DNA from: Nitrospirota bacterium
GTDB taxonomy: Bacteria > Nitrospirota > UBA9217
NCBI GenBank assembly: GCA_963740085.1
Contig: CAVUCU010000001.1
Span: 288,001-352,000 of the forward strand
DNA: 64,000 bases
Direction of reading: 5' to 3'
The translations under genes and the position numbers were made by a program. The notes under the pieces are model-generated. The model was not told where the DNA came from. It saw only the letters and a list, made by a program, of their open reading frames with translations, and searched no databases. The first letter of the stretch is position 1. Each line of letters begins with the position of its first letter. This document shows, one piece after another, positions 3,310 through 58,006 of this stretch.

Positions 3310-3400
3310 ACCGCAAAGACATCAGGAGCGCAAAGAAAGTAGTTAAACCATAGGGCATTTACATACTGAAGCATATTCGCGTCCTTCGCGTCTTCGCGGT
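3310..3400. repeat. 8-9-nt-period inverted tandem repeat element (class A, empty)
   Basis: ACCGCAAAG-ACATCAGGA-GCGCAAAG ... TTCGCG-TCCTTCGCG-TCTTCGCGGT. Confidence 0.8.
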
Positions 3401-4757: not shown

Positions 4758-4873
4758 TCTCGCAGAGGCGCAGAGTACGCAGAGACAGCAATACTTAATA
4801 AAGCAACGCCTTGGTCTTTGTCTTAATGCAAAAAGATTAAGCCTTTCTCTGCGAGCTCTGCGTCTCTGCGAGA
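4758..4873. repeat. class A inverted tandem repeat element (empty), arms nearly identical to those flanking GxxExxY-1
   Basis: TCTCGCAGAG-GCGCAGAG-TACGCAGAG ... CTCTGCG-AGCTCTGCG-TCTCTGCGAGA. Confidence 0.9.
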
Positions 4874-11460: not shown

Positions 11461-12666
11461 ATGACCATCGCTTACTTCGATTGTTTTTCCGGCATATCCG
11501 GCGACATGACCCTCGGCGCGCTTGTGGACGCGGGCGTCTCGATCGACGCCTTGCGCGCGGAACTGGCGAGACTCGATCTTCCCGGCTACGAGATCACGTC
11601 TGACAAGGTTAAACGTTCCGGAATTGCCGCCACCAGGGTCCATGTCATCATTGATCAGAAAGACCAGACATCGCGCCATCTCTCGGAGATAGAAAAGATC
11701 ATAGAAGGTTCTTCACTGCCTTTAGCGGTAAGAAAGAACAGCCTGCGGATATTCAAACGGCTGGCGGACGCGGAAGCAAAGGTGCACGGCACGACGCCCG
11801 ACAAGATCCACTTCCATGAGGTCGGCGCGGTCGATTCGATTGTGGATATCGTCGGTTCGGTCATCGGTCTTGAGCTTCTGGGCGTCTCGAAGATCATGGC
11901 ATCCGCGATCAATGCCGGCTCAGGCATGGTCCAGACTTCTCACGGAATGCTTCCCATTCCCGCCCCGGCGACGGCTGAGCTGCTTGCCAATATCCCCCTG
12001 TATCAATCAGCAACCCTGTTTGAGCTCACCACGCCCACGGGTGCGGCGATCATCAGCACGCTCGGGTCCTCCTTCGGCCTCATGCCTCCGATGAAGGTCG
12101 AGCGGACCGCCTACGGCGCGGGTGATAAAGATTTTCCGGGACAGCCGAATGTCCTGCGGCTCATGATCGGGGAGCCGGTTGCCGGGTACGATGAGGATAC
12201 GTCCATCGTCATCGAGACGAATATTGATGACATGAACCCGCAGATGTATGATTATGTCGTCGAGAAGCTCATGCAGCAGGGCGCGCAGGATGTGTATCTC
12301 ACTCCGATCATCATGAAAAAAGGCAGGCCCGCGATCCTGTTGTCGGTATTAACCGATCGGTCGAAGACTGATATCCTGCTCAACACCCTGTTCCGGGAAA
12401 CGACCAGCATCGGCGTCCGGATCAAGGAAGCGGGGAGGAAGAAACTCTCCCGCGAGATGCGTGAAGTCGAAACCCCGTATGGCAAGATCGGGATAAAGAT
12501 CAGCAAGAACGGCAATGAGATACTCACGGTGACCCCTGAGTATGAGGATTGCAGAAGGATCGCGGAGGAAAGGCGAATACCTTTGAAACAAGTGATAGAA
12601 GAAGCGAAAGCCATCTTTTCTCGCAGAGGCGCAGAGGGCGCAGAGAAAAGCGATGACAGAAAATAA
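11461..12666 (+). CDS. larC: nickel insertion protein LarC
   Basis: YFDCFSGISGDM, IHFHEVGAVDSIVD, ELTTPTG, ETNIDDM, MKKGRP, PEYEDC. Confidence 0.95.
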   Translation: MTIAYFDCFSGISGDMTLGALVDAGVSIDALRAELARLDLPGYEITSDKVKRSGIAATRVHVIIDQKDQTSRHLSEIEKIIEGSSLPLAVRKNSLRIFKRLADAEAKVHGTTPDKIHFHEVGAVDSIVDIVGSVIGLELLGVSKIMASAINAGSGMVQTSHGMLPIPAPATAELLANIPLYQSATLFELTTPTGAAIISTLGSSFGLMPPMKVERTAYGAGDKDFPGQPNVLRLMIGEPVAGYDEDTSIVIETNIDDMNPQMYDYVVEKLMQQGAQDVYLTPIIMKKGRPAILLSVLTDRSKTDILLNTLFRETTSIGVRIKEAGRKKLSREMREVETPYGKIGIKISKNGNEILTVTPEYEDCRRIAEERRIPLKQVIEEAKAIFSRRGAEGAEKSDDRK

Positions 12667-13087
12667 TATAACGGGTAATATCATAGACTGCTGCCTTAAA
12701 ATTCATAAGACGTTAGGCCCTGGACTTTTGGAATCGGTCTATGAGGAAGCACTGGCATACGAATTAAAAAGAAGAGGTCTTCCTTGCGACAGGCAGGTTG
12801 AAGTTCCAGTTGTTTATGACGGGATCAAGATGAATATTGGCTTTCGCGCCGATATTATCGTGGATGGCGAGGTCATTGTAGAACTGAAATCCATTGAATC
12901 GGTTCACCCTGTTCACAAGAAGCAGCTTCTGACTTATTTGAAGTTATCACAAAAGAGAGTCGGACTGTTAATCAACTTTAACGAAGATTTCATCAAGAAC
13001 GGAATTGCTCGGATTGCGAATGGCATTTAACCGCTGACCTTTTGAATTTTATTTGCATCACTCTGCGCACTCTGCGCCTCTGCGAGA
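12619..13087. mobile_element. GxxExxY-1 cassette: gene bracketed by 27-bp inverted tandem-repeat arms
   Basis: Left arm 12619-12645 TCTCGCAGAGGCGCAGAGGGCGCAGAG and right arm 13061-13087 CTCTGCGCACTCTGCGCCTCTGCGAGA are 26/27 complementary. Mobility is inferred. Confidence 0.6.
12653..13030 (+). CDS. GxxExxY protein (PD-(D/E)XK-like)
   Basis: LGPGLLESVY, RADIIV, VELK, QLLTYLK, GLLINF. AT-rich relative to neighbours. Confidence 0.93.
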   Translation: MTENNITGNIIDCCLKIHKTLGPGLLESVYEEALAYELKRRGLPCDRQVEVPVVYDGIKMNIGFRADIIVDGEVIVELKSIESVHPVHKKQLLTYLKLSQKRVGLLINFNEDFIKNGIARIANGI

Positions 13088-20675: not shown

Positions 20676-20754
20676 ACCGCAGAGCCGCGGAGGCCGCAGA
20701 GGTAACCAATCAAATTATTAAGGTTTTATTCTCCGCGTCCCAGCGTCTCTGCGG
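20676..20754. repeat. class A inverted tandem repeat element (empty)
   Basis: ACCGCAGAG-CCGCGGAG-GCCGCAGAG ... CTCCGCG-TCCCAGCG-TCTCTGCGG. Confidence 0.8.
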
Positions 20755-31854: not shown

Positions 31855-32535
31855 ATGTCCAGCCAGAAAGAACAGGAACTCGAAAAGCTCAAGGAACGGA
31901 TACTCGCGATGGGAGGGTTCGTCGAGGACGCAATACGGAGATCCGTCAAGGCCCTCGTTGAGCGGGATCGTGCCCTGGCGGTCCAGGTCATCGACGGAGA
32001 CGCCATTGTCAATAACTTCGACGTCGAGATCGAGGAGGAGTGCATCCGTTTCCTCGCACTCTGGCAGCCTACCGGCAGCAACCTGCGCCTCGTGACCACG
32101 GCGATCAAGATCATTACCGACCTGGAACGCATGGGCGACCTTGCCGTGGACATCTGTGAACGCGCCGTGGAGTTGTTAGACGAACCGCCGCTCAAACCCT
32201 TTATAGACATCCCGCGCATGGCCGAAGCGGCCCAGAAGATGCTCAAGGACAGCCTCGATGCCTTTGTGGAGCAGGACCCCGACCTCGCCGTGCACGTATG
32301 CGAGGATGACGACTTTGTGGACAACCTGAACGTGCAGATATTCAACGAACTGCTCCTCTATATGCTCAAGGACCCGAAAAACATCTCCCGCGCCGTACGT
32401 CTGACATACATCACCAAGTACCTGGAACGAGTCGGTGACCACGCCACCAACATTGCCGAGATGGTCGTGTACATGGTCAAGGGAAAGGTCATCCGTCATA
32501 TGGCGTGCGAGACGCAGAAGAAGCATGAGAGCTGA
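31855..32535 (+). CDS. phoU: phosphate signalling protein PhoU
   Basis: DLERMGD and LERVGDHATNIAE repeats. Confidence 0.95.
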   Translation: MSSQKEQELEKLKERILAMGGFVEDAIRRSVKALVERDRALAVQVIDGDAIVNNFDVEIEEECIRFLALWQPTGSNLRLVTTAIKIITDLERMGDLAVDICERAVELLDEPPLKPFIDIPRMAEAAQKMLKDSLDAFVEQDPDLAVHVCEDDDFVDNLNVQIFNELLLYMLKDPKNISRAVRLTYITKYLERVGDHATNIAEMVVYMVKGKVIRHMACETQKKHES

Positions 32536-32540
32536 TGTCC

Positions 32541-32680
32541 TATCATATTTTCAAGATTTACCGCAAGAGCACAGAGAAGGAATTTAAAATAGAAAGAACG
32601 TGCCTCTCTGCTCTCCCTGAACCTCCGCTCTTTCTGGGCTTTTCCCAGGGTATTTCTCAGTGCCCCCTGTGGTTTAATTT
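32541..32680. repeat. class A element, near-copy of 21385-21505
   Basis: TATCATATTTTCAAGATTTACCGCAAGAGCACAGAG ... CTCAGTGCCCCCTGTGGTTT. Confidence 0.75.
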
Positions 32681-32772
32681 CCCTCCCCCCTCTTTTTTAA
32701 TGACATCATGACTGGACCCGGTCGAAAAATCGGACATGTGCCCGTAACCCCTTGAGTGAAAAGATAAAATGT

Positions 32773-32801
32773 TTGACAAACCCCGCCGCACGATGTAGAA
32801 T
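32773..32801 (+). promoter_or_regulatory. sigma70-type promoter of the arn cluster
   Basis: TTGACA-N17-TAGAAT. Confidence 0.65.
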
Positions 32802-32902
32802 CAGCTTTCATAAAATCCCGCATCCCGTGCCGGAACAGGGAACCCGGAATGTTCTTCACCGGACACGCTCAAGCTCATTTCCATGAGAATAGAACTGCGT
32901 AC

Positions 32903-34588
32903 ATGACATCAGCCGCCAAACAAACAGGCCGCCTCAATATGAGCGACCTCATTATCCTGACCGTCCTGATCTGCATTCTTTTTACTTTTATGCTCGGAAA
33001 CCGTCCCCTGTCAGTACCGGACGAAGGCAGGTATGTCGAGATCCCCCGGGAGATGGTGGCCTCGGGAAACTACCTTACCCCCCGCCTGAACTACGTTAAA
33101 TATTTTGAAAAACCTGTTTTTTTCTACTGGCTCGAGGCATTGTCGATCAAGCTGTTCGGACTGAATGAATTTACACTCCGGCTCTGGCCCGCGTTGTTCG
33201 GGCTCTTCGGATGTCTTGCCATTGCTGTTGCCGGAGCGCGCCTGTTCGGACGCAGGACCGGCCTGCTGAGTGGGGTGGTCCTTGCCACGAGCCTCCTGTA
33301 TTACGGACTGAGCCGGGCCATCATCCTCGATATGCCGGTTTCCATTCTGCTTACTCTGGCGCTCCTGTCTTTCCTTATAGGCACACACGAGGCCCCGGGG
33401 CTGAAGCGCCGGCTCTATTTGTGGGGTTTTTATACCTTTGCCGCGCTGGCGGTCCTGACCAAAGGCCTGATCGGCATTCTCATCCCCGGCATGGTGATCG
33501 GTGCCTGGATACTCCTTCTGGGTGAATGGCGAATGCTCAAGACGCTGTATATTCCATCGGGCCTTGCCTTGTTCCTGCTTATCGCCGCGCCCTGGCATAT
33601 CATGGTGGATATGGCCAACCCCGAGTTTTTTAAATTCTATTTCATCCATGAGCATTTTCAGCGCTTTCTGACCAGGGTACATGGCCGTTACAAGCCGTTC
33701 TGGTATTTCATACCCATCGTGTTGCTGGGGTTGTTTCCCTGGAGCGCCTTTCTGCTGCAGGCGATCAAGCACAGCGTCCCTTCGACCTGGCGGGAACGCC
33801 ATGAACACCGGGATGCGCTCTTTTTCCTGCTCTGGGCAGGGCTCGTATTTCTCTTTTTCTCGGCATCAAGCTCGAAGCTGGCGCCTTATATCCTGCCGGT
33901 TTTTCCGCCCCTCGCGCTTTTGATCGGTCGCTATCTTGCAGCGGCATGGGACAGCCGGGGTTTTCCCGGCCTCCGGGCAGGATACTCTGTCCTCCTGATC
34001 GCTTCACTGCTGCTTTCCGCGGCCTTCCTTGGCCTGCCGTACTACTGGCCGATATCCGCCGGGACGCAGCCGCTCGGTATATACCGGTATACCATCGCCC
34101 TCACACTGGCCATCGGCGGCGCCGCAGCGTGGGGACTGATGAGGAATCGTAATCTCCGGCGGGCCTTTATCGCCGTGGCCATGACCTCGGCGCTCTTTCT
34201 CACTCAGGTGAACGCAGCCGCGCCCCGTGTCGATATCAAGTCCGTCAAACAGCTTGCGATCGAGCTCAAGGCCCGTCTCAGACCCGGTGACGAAGTGGCC
34301 AGCTACCAGGAATACTATCAGGACCTCCCGGTATATCTTGAGCGGCGAATCACGGTGGTTGACTGGGGCGGCGAGCTCAATTTCGGCAATAGCGTGGAGG
34401 ATACCAGCGCGTGGATGATCGACGGCGCTACGTTCTGGAAACGCTGGCAGGGACCGACGACAATGTATATGCTGACCCCGATCGAGGACTACGAAACCCT
34501 GAAACGATCAAGGCCGGATCTTCCGTTGTTCCCGATAGACCGGAACAAGAGGACCATCCTGTTGTCCAATAGAGAGGTCAAGCCATGA
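32903..34588 (+). CDS. arnT: ArnT-like lipid-carrier-dependent glycosyltransferase (GT83/GT39)
   Basis: PDEGRYVEIPREM, YFEKP, LTKG, HEHFQRF, SKLAPYILP. Confidence 0.88.
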   Translation: MTSAAKQTGRLNMSDLIILTVLICILFTFMLGNRPLSVPDEGRYVEIPREMVASGNYLTPRLNYVKYFEKPVFFYWLEALSIKLFGLNEFTLRLWPALFGLFGCLAIAVAGARLFGRRTGLLSGVVLATSLLYYGLSRAIILDMPVSILLTLALLSFLIGTHEAPGLKRRLYLWGFYTFAALAVLTKGLIGILIPGMVIGAWILLLGEWRMLKTLYIPSGLALFLLIAAPWHIMVDMANPEFFKFYFIHEHFQRFLTRVHGRYKPFWYFIPIVLLGLFPWSAFLLQAIKHSVPSTWRERHEHRDALFFLLWAGLVFLFFSASSSKLAPYILPVFPPLALLIGRYLAAAWDSRGFPGLRAGYSVLLIASLLLSAAFLGLPYYWPISAGTQPLGIYRYTIALTLAIGGAAAWGLMRNRNLRRAFIAVAMTSALFLTQVNAAAPRVDIKSVKQLAIELKARLRPGDEVASYQEYYQDLPVYLERRITVVDWGGELNFGNSVEDTSAWMIDGATFWKRWQGPTTMYMLTPIEDYETLKRSRPDLPLFPIDRNKRTILLSNREVKP

Positions 34589-34950
34589 GCTATTTCCCCC
34601 TGATCATGCTCGGCGTGCTGCTGAACGCTGCGGCGCAGTTGTTCCTCAAGGAGGGAATGCGCCGGATCGGCCACTTCGAGTTCGTCTGGGCAAATATCGT
34701 TCCCATCACCATTCAGGTGGCGGGAAACATTTTCGTGCTGGGGGGCCTGCTCTGCTATGTCATCAGCGTCGCGGTCTGGCTCCTGGTCCTGTCGCGTGTC
34801 GAGGTGAGCTTCGCCTATCCCCTTCTCTCCGTGGGATATATCGTGAATGCTGTGGCGGGCTACTACCTGTTCCAGGAAAATCTTTCGATGACACGCATCA
34901 CGGGGATACTGATCATTTGCGTGGGTGTATATTTTGTGACGAAGAGCTGA
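34585..34950 (+). CDS. ArnE/F-like SMR/EamA flippase
   Basis: AAAQLFLK, WLLVLSRVEVSFAYP, four TM segments. Confidence 0.85.
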   Translation: MSYFPLIMLGVLLNAAAQLFLKEGMRRIGHFEFVWANIVPITIQVAGNIFVLGGLLCYVISVAVWLLVLSRVEVSFAYPLLSVGYIVNAVAGYYLFQENLSMTRITGILIICVGVYFVTKS

Positions 34951-34976
34951 GCAAGGGTCAGTTACCTTCAAATTGA

Positions 34977-35443
34977 ACCGCGAAGACGCGAGGAACGCGA
35001 AGAAGGCGATTCATGCAATGGATATCGAAGAGATTGCTAGTAAAATTGCAAACAATGCCATTAAAGTGCATTCGGTCCTTGGCCCGGGTTTATTAGAATC
35101 GGCTTATCAGAAGTGTTTGGCATATGAATTAGGGAAAGATGGATGCAAGGTCGAATGCGAGGTTATGTTACCGGTCGTTTATGATGCAATTAATATTGAT
35201 GCAGGTTATCGAATAGATATGATCGTTGGAGGTTCAGTCCTCGTTGAGAATAAAACGGTCGAAGGTTTACTTCCGATTCATGAAGCACAATTATTGACTT
35301 ATCTTAAATTGAAAAACTGCAAAATAGGGTTTTTACTCAATTGGAATGTTACTCGTATGAAATATGGTATCAAAAGATGGTCAATAACTTATGAGTATTC
35401 AATGCAGTGTGTATGACCTTCGCGCTCTTCGCGCCTTCGCGGT
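34977..35443. mobile_element. GxxExxY-2 cassette bracketed by 26-bp inverted tandem-repeat arms
   Basis: Left 34977-35002 ACCGCGAAGACGCGAGGAACGCGAAG and right 35418-35443 CTTCGCGCTCTTCGCGCCTTCGCGGT (23/26 complementary). Mobility is inferred. Confidence 0.6.
35018..35416 (+). CDS. GxxExxY protein (PD-(D/E)XK-like), probable 1-nt deletion in the last codons
   Basis: LGPGLLESAY, YRIDMIV, VENK, QLLTYLK, GFLLNWN. AT-rich. Confidence 0.92.
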   Translation: MDIEEIASKIANNAIKVHSVLGPGLLESAYQKCLAYELGKDGCKVECEVMLPVVYDAINIDAGYRIDMIVGGSVLVENKTVEGLLPIHEAQLLTYLKLKNCKIGFLLNWNVTRMKYGIKRWSITYEYSMQCV

Positions 35444-35486
35444 ATAATGTTTTTACTGTTACGATCTCGACGTTTCAAGAGGACTT

Positions 35487-36653
35487 ATGTCAGATAATAA
35501 AGATCAAGAATTTCTCCCCTTCTCCCGGCCGTCCATCAGCCAGGCAGCCATAGATGAAGTCGTGGCGTGCCTGAAGTCGGGTTGGATCACGACCGGCCCC
35601 CGGGTCAGGCAGTTCGAGGAGGATCTGAAAACGTACCTTGGCGCACCGCACGTTCTTGCCCTTACCTCGGCAACGGCAGGCCTGCATCTCGCGCTCGTCG
35701 CGCTTAACCTGAAGCCCGGCGACGAGGTGATCACCACTCCCATGACCTTTGCGGCGACCCTGAACACCATCGTGCTCGCCGGCGGCAGGCCGGTGCTCGT
35801 CGATGTAGAGCCCGGCACCTACAACATGGACGTGACAAAGATCGAGAAGGCCGTTACGAAGCGCTCACGCGCCATCATGCCCGTGCACTTTGCGGGACTG
35901 CCCGTTGATCTCGATCCACTGTACGACATCGCGAAAAAGCACAACCTGAGGGTGATCGAGGACGCAGCGCACGCCATCGGAACGGAGTATAAGGGCAGGC
36001 GAATCGGCAGCTTTGGCGATGTCCAGGTCTTCAGCTTTCATCCCAACAAGAACATGACCACCGGAGAAGGCGGGTGCGTAGCAACCCGGGACGAGAAGCT
36101 TGCCTCGGACATAGCGCTTCTTCGATTCCACGGCATGGACCGCGAGGCATGGAACCGCTTCGGCAAGAAAGGCAACCAGCACTACGAGATCATAATGCCC
36201 GGATACAAGTACAACATGATGGATATGCAGGCCGCGCTCGGCCTGCATCAGTTAAAGCGGCTCGACGGATTCATTAAGCGGCGCGCCGAGATCGCCCTGC
36301 GCTATCAGAGGGTCCTCGCAGAGTGGCCGCAGTGGACGCTTACCAAAGCGCCGGCGTATCAGCATCTTAACGCCTGGCACCTCTACGCGCCGCTCATCAA
36401 CCCCGAAGCCGCGAAGATGGACCGCGACGCCTTTATGCAGGGCATGAAGGAGCGCAATATCGGTACCGGCCTGCACTACCGGGCCGTGCATCTCTATCCC
36501 TACTACCGTGATCAGTTCGGGTTCAAGCGCGGAGATTTTCCGAATGCCGAAACCATTTCGGACCGCATCGTGAGCCTGCCCCTTTTCCCGCTCATGACCG
36601 ACGCGGACCAGGACCGGGTGATCGCGGCCATGAAGGACCTGTTTCATCGATAG
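35487..36653 (+). CDS. arnB: DegT/DnrJ aminotransferase (ArnB-like)
   Basis: SGWITTGP, IEDAAHA, FSFHPNKNMTTGEGG, GYKYNM. Confidence 0.88.
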   Translation: MSDNKDQEFLPFSRPSISQAAIDEVVACLKSGWITTGPRVRQFEEDLKTYLGAPHVLALTSATAGLHLALVALNLKPGDEVITTPMTFAATLNTIVLAGGRPVLVDVEPGTYNMDVTKIEKAVTKRSRAIMPVHFAGLPVDLDPLYDIAKKHNLRVIEDAAHAIGTEYKGRRIGSFGDVQVFSFHPNKNMTTGEGGCVATRDEKLASDIALLRFHGMDREAWNRFGKKGNQHYEIIMPGYKYNMMDMQAALGLHQLKRLDGFIKRRAEIALRYQRVLAEWPQWTLTKAPAYQHLNAWHLYAPLINPEAAKMDRDAFMQGMKERNIGTGLHYRAVHLYPYYRDQFGFKRGDFPNAETISDRIVSLPLFPLMTDADQDRVIAAMKDLFHR

Positions 36654-36700
36654 GTGTTATTGCGGCGCCACGGCGCAACAATGAGAAGCGGTTTCGGATC

Positions 36701-36786
36701 ATCACGAATGATACGGATGGAACAAATAGTATAAAGTAATCCCCGGTGTCCATTCGTGTAATTCGCGTCTTCGTGTGATTCGTGTT
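36701..36786. repeat. class A element, CACGAAT variant (empty)
   Basis: ATCACGAAT-GATACGGAT-GGAACAAAT ... ATTCGTG-TAATTCGCG-TCTTCGTG-TGATTCGTG. Confidence 0.7.
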
Positions 36787-36818
36787 GAGGCTTGTTTCGG
36801 GAGCAAGGAGAGAAAGGC

Positions 36819-37760
36819 ATGACGAAACCCTACGTCAGCATCGTGATACCGGTTTATAACGAGGAGGCGAATCTCGAAGCCCTCTTCTCACGCCTTATGG
36901 CGGTGATGGACGGGACCGGGAAACCCTTTGAAGTGCTGTTCACGAATGACGGCAGCCGTGACCGCTCCGGCGCGATGCTGAAGGAATTCCACCAGCGCCG
37001 TCCGAAGGAGGTTCGCGTCATCGATTTCAACGGCAATTTCGGCCAGCACATGGCCATCATGGCGGCCTTCGAGCGCGTGCGCGGCGATGTGATCGTGACC
37101 CTGGATGCGGACCTGCAGAACCCCCCCGAAGAGATCCCCAAGCTGCTTGCTGGGATCGAGGCGGGACACGACGCGGTAGGCGGCTATCGAAGGGACCGGA
37201 AGGACTCCTTTTTCAGGAAGTATGCCTCAAAGATGATCAATGGGATCCGTGCAAAGATAACGAATATCCGTATGCGCGACCAGGGGTGCATGCTGCGCGC
37301 CTACCGCAGGAACATCATCGACAATATCGTTGCGAGCGGCGAGACCTCGACCTTCATCCCCGCCCTCGCCTACAGTTTTGCGGCCAACCCCGCCGAGGTG
37401 GAGGTCGAGCACGCGGCACGCTCGGCGGGAGAATCAAAGTATCATCTCTATGACCTGATCCGTCTGAACTTCGATCTCATGACCGGCTTTTCCGTTGTGC
37501 CGCTCCAGGTATTCACGGTCTTCGGCATCGCCGTCTCGGCCTTCAGTCTTCTGTTCGTGATTTTTCTCTTTATCCGGCGTATTATCGTCGGCCCCGAGGC
37601 GGAAGGGGTGTTCACCCTCTTCGCGATCCTCTACTTCCTCGTGGGAATCGGCATTATGGGACTCGGTATCATCGGCGAATATATCGGCCGAATCTATAAG
37701 GAAGTGAGGCGCAGACCACGTTTCGTGATCCGCGAGACCTATGAAAAACTCAATGAATAA
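36819..37760 (+). CDS. arnC: undecaprenyl-phosphate Ara4FN transferase (GT2)
   Basis: IVIPVYNEE, NFGQHMA, DADLQNPPEEI, two C-terminal TM, GEYIGRIY. Confidence 0.88.
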   Translation: MTKPYVSIVIPVYNEEANLEALFSRLMAVMDGTGKPFEVLFTNDGSRDRSGAMLKEFHQRRPKEVRVIDFNGNFGQHMAIMAAFERVRGDVIVTLDADLQNPPEEIPKLLAGIEAGHDAVGGYRRDRKDSFFRKYASKMINGIRAKITNIRMRDQGCMLRAYRRNIIDNIVASGETSTFIPALAYSFAANPAEVEVEHAARSAGESKYHLYDLIRLNFDLMTGFSVVPLQVFTVFGIAVSAFSLLFVIFLFIRRIIVGPEAEGVFTLFAILYFLVGIGIMGLGIIGEYIGRIYKEVRRRPRFVIRETYEKLNE

Positions 37761-38652
37761 ACCCGCCATCCTCGTTTTCGCGTACAACGACGTCGGCTAT
37801 GAATGTCTGGATGCCCTGATCCAGAACGATGAGTACATTCTCGCCGTCATCACCCACAAGGACGATCCGGAGGAAGAGATCTGGTTCAGGTCCGTGGCAA
37901 ACCTGGCGACGAAGTACGATATCCCCGTGCACAGGCCCGATTCGGTGAACTCGCCCGACTGGATAGAGCGGATACGTTCATGGGCCCCGGACCTCATCTT
38001 CTCCTTCTACTATCGGCATATGATACCCGAGGAGATACTGAACATCCCGAGACTCGGCGCATTCAACATGCACGGCTCCCTCCTCCCGAAGTACCGCGGC
38101 CGCGCACCGATCAACTGGGCCATCATACAGGGAGAACAATCGACCGGGGTGACGCTTCATCACATGGTCAAACGGGCCGATGCCGGTGACATAGTAGACC
38201 AGGAGGCAGTACCCATCGGTCATGATGATACGGTACAGGAGGTGTTCACCAAATGTGTCGCAGCGGCGCGGCGAGTGCTTGAACGTCAGCTCGAAGCGCT
38301 GACAGCGGGGACAGCCCCGCGGCGCAGTCAGAATGAAGCGCAGGCCACCTATTTCGGCGGCAGGAAACCCGAGGACGGCCGTATTGACTGGACGCAGAGC
38401 GCCGAGTCGATCTATAACCTCATCCGCGCGGTGACCAATCCCTATCCCGGGGCCTTTACAAATGTGAACGAGAAAAAGCTGTTCATCTGGTGGGCAACGC
38501 CCCTCCCTGGGGCCGGTGGAACACCTGGACAGGTGCTGTCCGCGGACCCGCTCAGGGCGGCAACGGGAAATGGGATCCTTGAGATCGTGAACTATGAGTG
38601 GGAAGAAGAGAATGAGGGAGAATTGCACGAGGGCCAGGTATTGGGCACATAA
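37753..38652 (+). CDS. UDP-Ara4N formyltransferase (stand-alone ArnA N-domain)
   Basis: VFAYNDVG, FSFYYR, NMHGSLLPKYRGRAPINWA, PYPGAF. Confidence 0.9.
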   Translation: MNKPAILVFAYNDVGYECLDALIQNDEYILAVITHKDDPEEEIWFRSVANLATKYDIPVHRPDSVNSPDWIERIRSWAPDLIFSFYYRHMIPEEILNIPRLGAFNMHGSLLPKYRGRAPINWAIIQGEQSTGVTLHHMVKRADAGDIVDQEAVPIGHDDTVQEVFTKCVAAARRVLERQLEALTAGTAPRRSQNEAQATYFGGRKPEDGRIDWTQSAESIYNLIRAVTNPYPGAFTNVNEKKLFIWWATPLPGAGGTPGQVLSADPLRAATGNGILEIVNYEWEEENEGELHEGQVLGT

Positions 38653-38851
38653 TCCGTTACCGGCAGCCAACACTGACCCACACTGACCCGGACAAGTTGG
38701 AACCCGAATCTTTTCGTCTTTTTCGTGCCATTCGTGATAACGCTTCGTGATGTTCTTACCATTTTGAGAAGAATTTGATTCATAATCGCCTGACCTCCGC
38801 CATCAAGGGGGAGATAATCACCTAAATGAACAGAAAAGAACGGAGCAGATC

Positions 38852-39892
38852 ATGAGTCTCAAAATTTTGATCCTCGGTGTAAATGGCTTTATCGGAAGCA
38901 GCCTGACCGAATATATCCTGAAAAACAGGGACTGGGAAGTGTACGGCATGGACATGGGCGATGACAAGATCGACCAGTGTCTGGGGCATGATCGATTCCA
39001 TTTTGTCGAGGGCGATATCACCATCAACAAAGAGTGGATCGAATACCACGTAAAAAAATGCGACGTGGTCCTTCCCCTGGTCGCCATCGCCACGCCGGCA
39101 ACGTATGTGATCGACCCGCTCAGGGTGTTCGAGCTGGATTTCGAGGCTAACCTCGACATCGTGCGCAAGTGCGTCCGGTATAAAAAGCGCGTCCTGTTTC
39201 CCTCCACATCGGAAGTATACGGCATGTGCGCGGACCCGGCGTTCGACGAGAACACGTCGAACCTCGTTCTCGGCCCTATTAACAAGCAGCGCTGGATATA
39301 CTCCTGTTCCAAGCAGCTCCTGGACCGGGTCATCCACGCGTACGGCATGAAAGAAGGACTGAGGTATACCCTCTTCAGGCCCTTCAACTGGGTCGGTCCC
39401 AGACTCGATAACATCCTGGAGCCCAAGGAAGGCAGCTCGCGCGTTCTTACCCAGTTCATCGGCAACATCCTCCGCGGCAGGGACATCCTTCTCGTGGACG
39501 GAGGAGCCCAGCGCCGGAGCTTCACCTACATCGATGACGGCATCGAAGCGCTGATCCGGATCATTGAGAACAAGGACAATGCCGCCGACAGCCGCATCTT
39601 CAATATCGGCAATCCCGAAAACGATGTGTCCGTCAGAGAGCTTGCCCAAACGCTGATCGAGCTCATCAAGTCCTATCCGAAGCATGCGAAGCTTGCCGAG
39701 AACGTCAAGCTCGTCACGGTCAAGTCCTCTGACTATTACGGCGACGGCTACCAGGACATCCAGACCCGGGTACCGTCCGTTAAGAACGCGGAGAAATACC
39801 TCGGCTGGAAACCGACCACGGACCTGAAGACGGCGCTCCGGAAGACCCTTGACTATCACCTCGGCAGGCCGTCGAGCGAGCTGAGCGAATAA
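38852..39892 (+). CDS. arnA: UDP-glucuronate oxidase/decarboxylase (stand-alone ArnA C-domain)
   Basis: [46 protein letters not shown]. Confidence 0.9.
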
Positions 39893-39935
39893 GCGTCCCC
39901 CCCACTGAGCCGTAAAGTCAGGCTAATACATTTAA

Positions 39936-40132
39936 ACCGCGAAGACGCAAAGAGCGCGAAGGTTTAAGTACATATCGATGAACGCGCAACAAGTCGAATG
40001 TAACCGCAGAGACGCTGAGGCGCAGAGAAAATCCTTCCGTGTCTCAACGCCTCCGCAGTAGATCAGGTTTTTTACGAGATCACCAGATTAGAGTCTGATG
40101 TTTATTCTTCGCGTCCTTCGCGACTTAGCGGT
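39936..40132. repeat. two nested class A elements
   Basis: Outer arms 39936-39961 and 40107-40132 (CGCGAAG type). Inner arms 40003-40027 and 40035-40059 (CGCAGAG type). Confidence 0.8.
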
Positions 40133-40172
40133 AATTTCTTTTCCAATTTTTAGGGACATCCAAACTGCGATT

Positions 40173-41078
40173 ATGACCACTCCCCTTCTCGCCATAAAGA
40201 TCGACGTGGACACCGATCGCGGCACGCGCATAGGCGTTCCCAATCTGCTGGACCTCTTCGACGCGTTCGGTATCAAGGCCACGTTCCTCTTCTCCCTTGG
40301 TCCTGACAACACCGGCCGCGCGATCAAGCGCATCTTTCGTCCCGGATTCCTGAGCAAGGTCAGCCGCACCAGCGTGGTTTCCACCTATGGCGTCCGCACA
40401 CTTCTGAACGGCATTCTTCTGCCCGGCCCGCACGTTGGCCGTCGGAACGAAAGAGTGATGCGTCTGGCCCGCGACAGGGGCCACGAGGTCGGCATCCACT
40501 GCTACGACCATATCCGCTGGCAGGATGGCCTCTCGAAGATGGACCGCGCCGAGGTCTACGAGGAGTTCGGCAAGGCACGGAAGGAATTCGAGCGGATCTT
40601 CGGCGGACCGGCAAAGACCGCGGGCTCCGCGGGATGGCAGGTAAACAGTTTCAGCCTCGAGGCCTATGACGATGCACACCTGCTTTACGCCAGCGATGCC
40701 CGTGGTACGCATCCGTTCTTTCCGCGCCTGGGCGGTGTGGTATACAAGACGCCCCAGATACCGACAACGCTTCCCACGCTGGATGAGCTGCTCGGCAGGC
40801 CGGAATATCCCGAGGACCGCATCGTAGCGCATTACCTTGCGCTCCTGGCGTCGGACAAATTGAATGTTCTCACGATCCACGCAGAGGTCGAAGGCATGAA
40901 GAAGATCGAACTGTTCAGGTCTTTGCTCGAACAGGTCCGGGAACGCAAGATACAGGTCAAAAGACTCGGTGACCTTGCCGCCAACCTTCTGAGAAACCCC
41001 TCATCCATTCCCCTGTGCGGACTTATCTCCGGCACGGTTGACGGAAGAAGCGGCACGCTGGCCGTCCAGGCGAAATGA
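40173..41078 (+). CDS. arnD: ArnD-like deformylase (polysaccharide deacetylase family)
   Basis: KIDVDT, LFSLGPDNTGR, GIHCYDH, IPTTLPTLDE, TIHAE. Confidence 0.88.
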   Translation: MTTPLLAIKIDVDTDRGTRIGVPNLLDLFDAFGIKATFLFSLGPDNTGRAIKRIFRPGFLSKVSRTSVVSTYGVRTLLNGILLPGPHVGRRNERVMRLARDRGHEVGIHCYDHIRWQDGLSKMDRAEVYEEFGKARKEFERIFGGPAKTAGSAGWQVNSFSLEAYDDAHLLYASDARGTHPFFPRLGGVVYKTPQIPTTLPTLDELLGRPEYPEDRIVAHYLALLASDKLNVLTIHAEVEGMKKIELFRSLLEQVRERKIQVKRLGDLAANLLRNPSSIPLCGLISGTVDGRSGTLAVQAK

Positions 41079-41527
41079 CACCCTTTCGCCTGATCAGCAG
41101 CCAAGACGCATGCAGTTCCCGGGAAGAGCATTGGTGCATAACGGACAGAATATTAATTGACCTTTGTGATGGAGGTCATCTTGACAATGAAATTTGCATG
41201 GATCAACAATTGGTCACCTCGCAAACTGTAATTAGCATCATTGACTTGTCCGTTCAATTTATCTTGACACGGAGAGAGCGGGAATTTATCATGCACGTCG
41301 ATGGTGAGCGGTTTGCCCCCCGGGTCCGGCTGGACGATCGGCACGCTCAACACGATGAGCGCGCGAATGCAGGCCAGGTCGGTACTGGCGGGCCTTCTGA
41401 CGGCCGCAGCCTGAAGACGCAAGCGTTGTGTTTAGCGAAAGTACGCTTCGCAATCGATCGGTGCATGCTCAATGAGACGAACACATGGAGCAGCAATTAC
41501 TATATAAAAACTGAGAGGGAGGCTATC

Positions 41528-42004
41528 ATGAAAACAATCAGTATGAGAGAGAAGATCGGGCTGTTGGCAGTAAGTGCGTTCGTGGCTACCGCGATCCTCA
41601 CGGCGTGCCAAAGTGGCCCGCCGCAGATCAGCATCGATGGGGCCCGGGCCGAGTTGTCCCCCGCTATTATAGGCGAAGCTATGGTGACTATGAATATCAA
41701 GAACGAAGGTGGAGCGGATGTGCTCACGGGAGTAAAGATTGACATACCGGGTGCAAGGGCTTTATTTCACGTTATGCAGGGCGAGCGCATGGTGAGTGCA
41801 GACAGAGTGAAAATCCCGGCGAAAGGGAACATGGAATTGAAGATGGGCGGCAGCCACATCATGATTCAGGATATGCCTAAGACCATAAAGGAAGGTTCTC
41901 GGTTCAACGTGACGCTGACCTTTGAGAAATCAGGAGAGAAGCAGATACCGCTGACGCTTCAGGGGGCCGCCGCAATGCCCATGGGGCATGGACACCACAT
42001 GTAA
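41528..42004 (+). CDS. copper chaperone PCu(A)C family lipoprotein
   Basis: Lipobox LTAC, H...M...GGSHIM, LTFEKSG, His/Met tail. SD GGGAGG. Confidence 0.85.
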   Translation: MKTISMREKIGLLAVSAFVATAILTACQSGPPQISIDGARAELSPAIIGEAMVTMNIKNEGGADVLTGVKIDIPGARALFHVMQGERMVSADRVKIPAKGNMELKMGGSHIMIQDMPKTIKEGSRFNVTLTFEKSGEKQIPLTLQGAAAMPMGHGHHM

Positions 42005-49048: not shown

Positions 49049-49142
49049 CTCGCAAAGACGCAAAGGACGGCAAGAATATCTTCAAGTATTGGTCTAAAAT
49101 AAAATGATTCGCCTTTCTTTGCGCACTTTGCGCCTTTGCGAG
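49049..49142. repeat. class A element, CGCAAAG variant (empty)
   Basis: CTCGCAAAG-ACGCAAAG-GACGGCAAG ... CTTTGCG-CACTTTGCG-CCTTTGCGAG. Confidence 0.85.
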
Positions 49143-56230: not shown

Positions 56231-58006
56231 CTACATCCTCTTGAACATCTTCATGATCTCGGTCATCGTAAATCGAACGATCGTCGGCCTCCCGTGCGGA
56301 CAGGTATGCGGCATGCGGCATTTGAACAGGTCCGCAAGGAGCATTTCCATCTCCTGCCGGTCGAGATGACGATGAACCTTGATCGCGGGATGGCAGGCCA
56401 TCACACTCAGCATTGCATCCCGTACCTCATCCATTCTCCCGCTCTTGCCATGGACATTCACTTCATCGAGGATATCGAGAAGCAACTGCTTGATGTCGGC
56501 TCCGACCAGCAGCGCCGGTACCGCCTTGATCACGAACGTGCCATTCCCGAAATCCTCCACCAGAAAACCGAGTTTGGAAAGTTCCGGCAGATATTCAGCA
56601 AGCACCGTGCTCTGTGCCGGCCCGAGCTCAACCTGGTCCGGCACCAGGAGCCCCTGGACAGCAACGTGTCCGGCTTTGAACTGGTCCTGCAGCCTTTCGA
56701 AAAGCACCCGCTCGTGCGCCGCATGCTGATCAATGAGCGCCATCCCCTCCCGTGACTGGGCAACGATGAACGAGTCGTGGATCTGTGCGAGAGGGTGGAG
56801 AAGTTCGGAGTTCAGAGTTGGGAGTTCGGAGTATGAAGCGAAGGAAACGGGAGCAGTGGAATATTCCAATTCCCGGTTCTGCGCTTGTTCGGCAGATTTT
56901 GGAACAGCATTCCTGGTGTCCCAACTCCGGACTCCGAACTCCGAACTTTTTACATTGCTCAGGTAATCCGACAAACTTTCTCTCACCCCATCAGCATGCG
57001 TCGTCGCAGAAGAAGTATTCACCCCCCGCAAAGCCTCCCGGAGCACGTCCCGGACCAGGTCATGCAATTGCGATTGATTTCGGAAGCGGACCTCGGCCTT
57101 GGCTGGATGGACATTTACATCCACGAGCGTTGGATCGATCTCGATAAAGATGAAAGCCACAGGGTGCCGGCCGCGCATAAGCATGTCACCGCAGGCACTG
57201 TAGAGCGCGTGCGTGAGCGACGGGTTCTTGACCGCGCGACGGTTCACGAAGAATTCCTGGTATGTTTTGTCCGCCCGGCTCGTTCCGGGACGGCCGATGA
57301 GGCCTTTGACATGAACGTCCGTGCCACCGGCGAACTCGATCAGGTTTCCGGCTATTTCTTCACCGTAAAGCTGGAGCGCCCGTTCCCGGACGCTCACGGA
57401 GGGAGAAAGTTCGAGCACCGTTTTTTTGTTATGCGTAAGTCTGAAACGGACGGAAGGCTGCGCCATTGCCTGGCGAGATACCGCGGTCAGGATATGTGAG
57501 AACTCGGTCGCCGGGCTCTTCAGGAACTTGCGTCTCGCCGGAGTATTGAAAAACAGATGGCTGATCTCCAGGGAGGTACCCTGCGGCGCAGCAGCTTCGG
57601 ACACGGTCTTGACGATACCGCCCTCGATCTCGATCAGCGCACCAGACGTCGCGTCCTTCATCGCGCTCTGCAGCCGTACGTGGGACACCGAGGCAATGCT
57701 GGAGAGGGCCTCTCCCCGAAAGCCCATGGTACGAATGGATTCCAGGTCGGTATCGCTGGTTATCTTGCTCGTGGCGTGGCGCAGGAATGCGGTCCGGGCG
57801 TCCTCGTTCGACATGCCGCTGCCGTTGTCCGTAATGCGGATGAGCCGCTTGCCGGCCTCTTCGATGTCGATGAATATTTGGGTCGCCCCTGCGTCGATCG
57901 AGTTCTCGATAAGTTCCTTTACCACGGACGCGGGCCGCTCCACCACCTCGCCCGCGGCGATCTTATTGATGACATGGTCAGGGAGAATTTTGATTAGGGA
58001 GGACAT
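56231..58006 (-). CDS. mutL: DNA mismatch repair protein MutL
   Basis: IAAGEVVERP, GFRGEALSSI, DVNVHPAK, DQHAAHER, CPHGRP. Confidence 0.97.
   Translation of the reverse strand: MSSLIKILPDHVINKIAAGEVVERPASVVKELIENSIDAGATQIFIDIEEAGKRLIRITDNGSGMSNEDARTAFLRHATSKITSDTDLESIRTMGFRGEALSSIASVSHVRLQSAMKDATSGALIEIEGGIVKTVSEAAAPQGTSLEISHLFFNTPARRKFLKSPATEFSHILTAVSRQAMAQPSVRFRLTHNKKTVLELSPSVSVRERALQLYGEEIAGNLIEFAGGTDVHVKGLIGRPGTSRADKTYQEFFVNRRAVKNPSLTHALYSACGDMLMRGRHPVAFIFIEIDPTLVDVNVHPAKAEVRFRNQSQLHDLVRDVLREALRGVNTSSATTHADGVRESLSDYLSNVKSSEFGVRSWDTRNAVPKSAEQAQNRELEYSTAPVSFASYSELPTLNSELLHPLAQIHDSFIVAQSREGMALIDQHAAHERVLFERLQDQFKAGHVAVQGLLVPDQVELGPAQSTVLAEYLPELSKLGFLVEDFGNGTFVIKAVPALLVGADIKQLLLDILDEVNVHGKSGRMDEVRDAMLSVMACHPAIKVHRHLDRQEMEMLLADLFKCRMPHTCPHGRPTIVRFTMTEIMKMFKRM
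56802..56947. repeat. class B heptamer inverted element inside the mutL linker
   Basis: AGTTCGG-AGTTCAG-AGTTGGG-AGTTCGG-AGT ... ACTCCGG-ACTCCGA-ACTCCGA-ACT. Confidence 0.85.

Follow-up and report, generated by a model that had tools for sequence, protein, structure and literature searches.

A GxxExxY nuclease gene between heptamer-array arms in a Nitrospirota arn operon: one filled member of a large hairpin family

The cassette in the arn operon

The window (the whole analysed stretch, 64,000 nt of contig CAVUCU010000001.1 of a Nitrospirota bacterium; coordinates are counted from its first letter) contains an arn operon whose genes all lie on the plus strand and encode ArnT, an ArnE/F-like protein, ArnB, ArnC, an ArnA-type formyltransferase, an ArnA-type decarboxylase and ArnD. 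At 34977–35443 (467 bp) an intact GxxExxY (PD-(D/E)XK) gene stands between two 26-nt inverted arms, with the following features and neighbours:

32849–34588, plus strand: ArnT (profile match)
34585–34950, plus strand: ArnE/ArnF-like flippase subunit, upstream host gene (NF002816, 1.3e–17, below the curated cut-off)
34977–35002, plus strand: left (5') arm; terminal ACC, then CGCGAAG, CGCGAGG and CGCGAAG at spacings of 8 and 9 nt
35003–35017, plus strand: inner box and leader, AAGGCGATTCATGCA, in which AAGG is Shine-Dalgarno-like
35018–35416, plus strand: GxxExxY / PDDEXK_3 nuclease gene, 132 aa, GC 0.366
35418–35443, plus strand: right (3') arm; CTTCGCG at 35418, 35427 and 35435, then GT
35487–36653, plus strand: ArnB-like aminotransferase, downstream host gene (NF008658, 1.9e–132, below the curated cut-off)

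A sequence-only reading of the window had described a divergent GxxExxY paralog placed co-directionally between the flippase gene and arnB, and the profile matches and the common strand of the gene and its neighbours agree with this. It had also given each arm three units of the CGCGAAG/CTTCGCG kind. We located those of the left arm at 34979–85 (CGCGAAG), 34987–93 (CGCGAGG) and 34996–35002 (CGCGAAG), separated by the spacers A and AA; the right arm, 35418–35443, reads CTTCGCG-CT-CTTCGCG-C-CTTCGCG-GT. The gene starts 15 nt past the left arm, and the right arm begins 1 nt beyond the stop codon. Of the 26 arm positions 23 are complementary, and the three mismatches fall where they had been reported: two in spacers (A opposite C) and one, G-U-compatible, in unit 2 (G opposite T). 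A repeat search returns the pair as a 31-nt inverted repeat, 84% complementary, with its halves 415 nt apart. Judged by eye, many members of the family, whether filled or empty, have a GAAAGGC/GAAAAGC box related to the inner box after their last unit.

That a chance inverted repeat surrounds an ordinary small gene is practically out of the question. The heptamer CGCGAAG alone is indeed only mildly enriched in the window (25 matches versus 16 ± 4 expected), but the arm alignment score of 37 lies at z = 11.8 relative to 30 shuffles, the same layout recurs at all six paralogs of the genome, and it appears at 3 of 3000 random sites and in 0 reversed-pattern controls. Shuffles, random sites and reversed patterns together refute this explanation; the signal is the clustered, inverted triplets rather than the heptamer by itself.

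The encoded protein matches TIGR04256 GxxExxY (2.1e–38, 131.2 bits, cut-off 35) and PF13366 PDDEXK_3 (1.2e–36, 126 bits, cut-off 22). In a 39-sequence alignment H18, G22, G24, L25, L26, E27, Y30, Y55, D67, E77, K79 and N108 are invariant; the motif G24-L-L-E27-S-A-Y30, D67 and E77-N-K79 are thus all present and invariant. The structure model (pLDDT 93) has a restriction-endonuclease-like PD-(D/E)XK fold, for which fold matches in the PDB are middling and generic (the uncharacterised 3ijm, Z 7.9; Cas4, 7.7; Hjc resolvase, 7.1), and the best Foldseek hit (E = 1.2e–3) likewise leads only to generic PD-(D/E)XK folds. A sequence search of the PDB matched no solved structure, and neither PADLOC nor PHROGs holds a family matching the protein. 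The protein is predicted to be an active nuclease.

GC content is 0.34–0.40 across the cassette versus 0.55–0.65 in its flanks. All six GxxExxY ORFs of the genome are GC-poor (0.34–0.47 versus 0.543 for the genome), the copy whose position is conserved in three genera among them; low GC is therefore a trait of the GxxExxY family and provides no date for the arn insertion. Between 34400 and 35700 a promoter scan gave 4 weak promoter-like sites (1.6 ± 1.5 expected), and the only matches of a terminator scan were local CGCG mini-hairpins within the arms. As the cassette has no convincing promoter of its own, it is probably transcribed by read-through from the arn operon. A search of Rfam (E ≤ 1) with 32000–42000 found no family.

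Filled and empty hairpins in relatives, window and genome

We compared the arn operons of related genomes. ArnB has orthologues of 77–91% identity in 14 of them, and the arnF-arnB spacer is readable in 13; the fourteenth (L030) has no arnF match and was left out. None of the 13 orthologous spacers carries a GxxExxY cassette; the cassette is not fixed at this position, and fixation across distant taxa would have spoken against the earlier reading. Seven of them, read by eye, hold gene-less hairpins that share the design but differ in their units:

G003 and G008: CACGGAT
G001: CGAGTT-type
G004 and G005: TCTCAAG-like
G020: CGCAAAG
G018: CGCAGAG

The spacer of G006 has only a left arm (CACAGAG), and that of G009 a lone right arm of the arn cassette's own family (…CTTCGCGGTAATA), so that 9 of the 13 contain part or all of a hairpin. 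Three, from more distant genomes, are short and contain no element, and one (L028) is unclassified. The spacer is hence a site of hairpin turnover at which the gene occurs only in the lineage studied here. Since the relatives' spacers hold other elements or are too diverged, a target-site duplication is not definable. We are highly confident that the locus represents a discrete cassette of this family that was acquired at this site.

Further elements of the same design lie elsewhere in the window:

12622–13084, plus strand: sister cassette; GxxExxY ORF 12653–13030 between CGCAGAG/CTCTGCG arms at 12622–12645 and 13061–13084
39938–40130, no strand assigned: empty element of the arn cassette's arm family, between arnA-C and arnD
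3310–3398, no strand assigned: decayed empty element; right arm 3376–3398 with CTTCGCG units at 3384–3398

Both GxxExxY genes of the window accordingly share one layout, and the empty elements that had been placed at 3310–3400 and 39936–40132 are there. The element at 39938–40130 has arms of three units each (39938–39961 and 40107–40130) with termini ACCGCG...GCGGT, and a second left arm is nested at 40005–40027. In the decayed element the left arm (about 3310–3340) has drifted to CGCAAAG. The longest ORF for arnD, with its first codon at 40098, extends across the right arm of the element at 39938–40130; its match to the ArnD family begins only at residue 33, and by eye the real start is probably an ATG near 40174. 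The window also contains a CGCAGAG empty element of the same design (4761–4870), a lone left arm with the unit ACCGCAGAG (20678–20701), a CGCAAAG empty element (49051–49140) and a hairpin with a GGAGTT unit (56807–56942).

Each of the genome's six GxxExxY genes lies between inverted arms of 2–3 short direct units and has a unit of its own. Short-loop hairpins with units of the C-R-C-N-R-R-D type number 155 genome-wide, versus 8–11 in shuffles, and these purine-arm-first hairpins compare with 29 in which the pyrimidine arm comes first. The genome contains about 145 gene-less hairpins of this type, a ratio of empty to filled of roughly 25:1. Triple-unit family-B arms (beginning ACCGC) occur 55 times, versus 0 for a reversed-pattern control, and 37 family-B elements are recoverable by their outer units alone. 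In a pairing scan with loops of up to 2.5 kb, which yielded mostly spurious two-unit chains, only pairs with three units per side were considered. Family-B triple-unit arms are present in 25 of 41 related genomes, this one counted: in 22 of 24 relatives from its own family, in both genomes of one other family and, among nine further families, in none of 14 genomes. Judged by our own crude ORF calls, hairpins occupy co-directional, convergent and divergent spacers at background proportions (66% co-directional in both), so that their placement indicates no tie to operons.

On contig C1 we noted three further sites. Positions 1–1400 hold tandem CGCAGAT/ATCTGCG hairpins around one GxxExxY gene at the contig start, and at 2674–2783 a unit that includes the reverse complement of TGACCC is repeated 15 times in tandem. 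The stretch 1184000–1191500 was considered as a cassette array and ruled out, as it has one GxxExxY gene among ordinary genes.

Many short intergenic copies with inverted termini are the mark of bacterial small palindromic repeats such as Correia, REP/BIME and RUP. The arn family resembles these and MITEs in being intergenic, in its variable presence among close relatives and in the coexistence of longer, gene-carrying copies, and it shares with MITEs inverted termini common to many short copies (the 55 triple-unit arms versus 0 in the control). Unlike those of MITEs, its arms consist of an arrayed 7-nt motif, the spacers being free, rather than of a contiguous inverted repeat, and its subfamilies have the same design with different unit letters. 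MITEs and other small repeats of this kind are the subject of a review (PMC3184786).

A small promoter-less gene with an imperfect hairpin also calls to mind an integron gene cassette, with the hairpin serving as attC for the integron integrase that the genome does encode (TIGR02249, 361 bits, cut-off 265). Family-B termini (...AAC CGC ... GCG GTT...) are reminiscent of the attC R''/R' boxes, and tandem arrays exist at some Desulfobacterota and Chloroflexi loci. However, the ORF is inside the hairpin and not beside it. The termini of the arn cassette are ATTGAAC (6/7 to R'', RYYYAAC) and GTATAAT (5/7 to R', GTTRRRY), with the GTT core broken, so that R''/R' boxes are missing, and family A has no AAC/GTT. 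The integrase has three attC sites next to it, all classic (…AAC … GTTRRRY) and free of heptamer arrays, and the cassette is a singleton, whereas integron cassettes stand in an array beside their integrase, which here is on another contig. We therefore rejected the integron link, which we hold to be very improbable. The integrase itself (C5:330983–331921; L191:8978–10465, minus strand) lies beside DUF2267, DUF4238 and HicA toxin-like genes with attC-like sites between them.

Association of arms with protein clades and constraint on the arms

Arms of the same class accompany GxxExxY genes well beyond this genome. We tested GxxExxY loci for at least 2 C-R-C-N-R-R-D units at 7–13 nt spacing on both flanks, purine arm first. 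The pattern fits 34 of 52 loci from this genome and 14 related ones and 22 of 62 loci from a wider genome collection (64 less L156 and L157, which are short partial matches), versus 3 of 3000 random genome positions; other arrangements are found at a further 3 and 12 loci, respectively. As the pattern was derived from these very loci the exact counts are somewhat flattering, but the contrast with the random-site control far exceeds this bias. At most of the loci the gene begins and ends 0–30 nt from the arms, and the inner box is shared.

The best homologues of the arn-cassette protein are at most 72% identical and come from Nitrospirae, Chloroflexi, Anaerolineae and Desulfobacterota genomes; within the same genus it has no close relative. 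Among the closest homologues, three (L095, L096, L098) have both arms of the arn-cassette family with the termini ACCGC...GCGGT, and one (L116) has the left arm only. In a quick maximum-likelihood tree of 103 GxxExxY proteins, built on only 129 columns so that many forks are unresolved, the arn-cassette protein groups with L088, from a genome of the same family, and with L095, and the arms of both use CGCGAGG. All three belong to a 36-row clade (SH-aLRT 98) that spans several phyla and in which nearly all called units are CGC-N-AAG. Over the 64 rows with both arms the majority unit changes 32 times on the tree, versus 42–51 times in 300 label shuffles. Unit sequence and protein clade are therefore related, as had been anticipated.

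A second, orthologous cassette site allows the same comparison within one position. It is conserved across three genera and under purifying selection (the two unsaturated pairs give dN/dS of about 0.10 and 0.05) and exists as two alleles, one with CGCAGAG and one with CGCAAAG arms, whose proteins are 63–67% identical to each other. G004, of the same genus as our genome, has the CGCAAAG-type allele otherwise seen in two other genera. In L058, where neither arm of the allele is damaged, one and the same substitution relative to CGCAGAG is found in each of the six units. With differing arms and differing proteins at one site, arms and gene vary as a block.

The sequence-only reading had raised the possibility of a cognate repeat subfamily for each paralog. 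As an association this link is real, by both the tree and the unit class, whereas a strict one-to-one rule fails. One relative (G029, 98% complete, with 8 four-helix-bundle genes) has 20 family-B triple-unit arms and no GxxExxY match; another (G011, 87% complete) has 7 such arms and, again, no GxxExxY match; and our genome has 10 CAC-N-GAG hairpins with three units per arm and no resident paralog with such a unit. Because inheritance or transfer of arms and gene as a block explains the association equally well, we describe the relation as association and not as recognition.

We then asked what is conserved in the arms. In the predicted RNA fold of the cassette both arms pair, in the minimum-free-energy as well as the centroid structure, and of 65 empty elements the 37 in family B have a median folding z of –4.3 and the 28 in family A one of –4.1. 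Arm mismatches show no wobble bias on the sense strand (G-U-compatible to A-C 26:26, 43:45 and 20:27), which counts against pure selection for an RNA stem, since such selection would favour G-U. For inner units, taken from elements ascertained only by their outermost units, the commonest letter reaches 0.76–0.89 at positions 1, 3, 6 and 7, whereas position 4 is free (0.43 in family B, 0.62 in family A). Position 4 is complementary between paired units in only 18 of 74 and 25 of 56 cases, and in hairpins with three units per arm in 109 of 243 versus 118 for shuffled partners; neither it nor the spacers covary between paired units. The constraint thus looks like one on a motif and not on base pairs. 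This suggests that the arms form a bulged stem in which conservation is confined to the two 3-nt halves of the units. Motif recognition accounts for the pattern no worse than pure base-pair selection does, and the RNA-stem reading and the binding-site reading may both be compatible with it.

These results bear on a further explanation, a MITE-like DNA transposon, in which the arms would be terminal inverted repeats made of arrayed binding sites, GxxExxY the element's own excision and insertion enzyme, the ~145 empties non-autonomous copies moved in trans, and RNA folding incidental. Such a transposon would account for the many empty copies with shared arms, the occupation of one spacer by different elements in species of one genus, the retention of six constrained unit positions beside a position 4 and spacers that drift but do not covary, the missing strand-specific wobble bias, the background insertion context and the arms-gene linkage across phyla. 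It is harder to reconcile with the lack of a target-site duplication or empty donor site definable from the relatives' spacers, with a non-nuclease four-helix-bundle cargo in the same vehicle (see below), with arms but no gene in G029, and with some cassettes being retained at the same position in different genera and evolving under purifying selection. We identified no transposase for the arn cassette. To our knowledge, no 132-aa PD-(D/E)XK protein acts as a transposase and none transposes alone, TnsA needing TnsB. We consider this explanation unlikely.

Kinship with 23S rRNA intervening sequences and a proposed mechanism

The same architecture carries a second cargo. TIGR02436, a four-helix-bundle family named '23S rRNA intervening sequence protein', has 10 matches at 8 loci in this genome, and 31 four-helix-bundle loci in this genome and its relatives are built like the GxxExxY cassettes. 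Their arm units are varied (CAGGG, GATGCGT, GTGATAAG, AGAGTCT, AAAATGC, GTTCGGAG, CTAAAGTG), and in none of the 31 does the C-R-C-N-R-R-D class occur on both flanks. In L016 (C4:482702–483288, ORF 1644–1898) the four-helix-bundle gene, in a hairpin of CTAAAGTG units, is split by a GIY-YIG nuclease ORF (84 aa, PF01541, 1.2e–15), a selfish gene nested in a selfish cassette. In L161 (G007:C33, about 1471–1845) a four-helix-bundle cassette with GGGGATC-type arms apparently lies, by eye, inside a DNA-methyltransferase-like frame with the flanks ...YYTPKYIVDYIV... and ...KILDPACGSGSFLL....

The nested GIY-YIG gene implies that hairpin loops accept insertions, and one can imagine the hairpins as resident, host-tolerated, REP-like stabilisers or processing sites, with GxxExxY genes as separate selfish genes that landed in their loops and became linked to the arms only by inheritance once there. 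The ~25:1 excess of empty over filled hairpins and the empty hairpins at the same place in related spacers would agree with this. Yet at most loci the gene ends lie 0–30 nt from the arms, and they have an inner box in common; in other phyla the closest homologues have the same arm family and termini; and GxxExxY cargo is confined to one unit class, which 0 of the 31 four-helix-bundle loci use. We regard resident hairpins as quite unlikely.

The closest described counterpart of the arn cassette is the 23S rRNA intervening sequence (IVS). In Coxiella the IVS has a four-helix-bundle ORF in the loop of a 28-bp terminal stem, with three tandem heptamers (GACAGAT), strain-variable in number, directly before the start codon, and RNase III cuts in mid-stem; the same paper cites IVSs for Leptospira and Salmonella and regards the element as selfish (PMC4990558). 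Like the IVS, the arn cassette has its ORF in the loop of terminal inverted repeats (23/26 complementary) and three tandem heptamers (34979, 34987, 34996) just upstream of the start. Unlike it, the cassette lies in an mRNA spacer between arnE/F and arnB and not in helix 25 or 45 of 23S rRNA, its cargo is a PD-(D/E)XK GxxExxY protein and not S23p or a four-helix bundle, and its units are of the conserved C-R-C-N-R-R-D class, with ~145 gene-less copies per genome. Excision by RNase III has been shown for the 23S IVS and is putative for the arn cassette. By its shared layout the arn cassette is an element of the IVS type that lies outside rRNA and carries another cargo.

Of eight full-length 23S rRNA genes, one in this genome and seven in 6 of 24 relatives, none contains an IVS with cargo; the majority of the 24 lack an assembled 23S. 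The gene is 3002 nt long in this genome and 2982–3007 nt in the other seven copies. In the open-access literature we found GxxExxY cassettes or heptamer-array hairpins described nowhere beyond the Coxiella IVS paper.

Overall, the arn cassette is a filled representative of a large family of heptamer-array hairpins that is IVS-like and MITE-like at once. With moderate confidence, we suggest that it is a self-contained palindromic gene cassette of the IVS type, with the two three-heptamer arms as its termini. In the transcript the arms would pair into a bulged stem of ~26–31 bp, a putative substrate of RNase III by analogy with the 23S IVS of the same design, and cleavage would free the cassette RNA from the host message; we put forward this RNA stem with RNase III processing as plausible but tentative. 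At the DNA level, arms and gene would form one heritable, transferable unit, and the same arm family would also persist as many gene-less hairpins, related to the filled element as MITEs are to parent transposons. The nuclease would most likely target heptamer arrays within its own element family, cutting them or homing into empty hairpins. Such action would explain why the arm subfamily tracks the protein clade; that the GxxExxY nuclease recognises its own arm family is, on the sequence patterns above, a possibility we advance with more reserve.

Homing endonucleases include PD-(D/E)XK and GIY-YIG types, and, like their genes, the cassette is a small nuclease gene in a site with empty forms elsewhere in the genome, whose arms could serve as homologous flanks to template copying. 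Unlike them, it has no intron or intein, and the flanking homology amounts to only ~26–40 nt. The non-nuclease four-helix-bundle cargo in the same vehicle implies that mobility may not depend on the cargo. In its broadest and rather doubtful form, our proposal would make GxxExxY nucleases the dedicated enzymes of heptamer-array palindromic elements across phyla: each protein clade would read its own unit letters (positions 2, 5 and 7 of C-R-C-N-R-R-D) and cut or home into hairpins of its own subfamily, spawning hundreds of gene-less copies per genome, with the 23S IVS as a ribosomal special case.

IVSs of 23S rRNA have been known for more than 30 years, and we know of no explanation of their origin, their mobility or the role of their ORF. 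Here the same vehicle is found outside rRNA, with a second cargo family (a predicted nuclease), a conserved unit motif, ~145 empty copies and an arm-gene link that extends across phyla, which turns a curiosity of rRNA into a general, testable class of mobile elements. The widespread and uncharacterised GxxExxY family (PF13366) gains a candidate substrate in its own flanking heptamer arrays. For the host, cassettes within operons, here one for lipid A modification (arn), may cut or re-shape the transcripts in which they reside.
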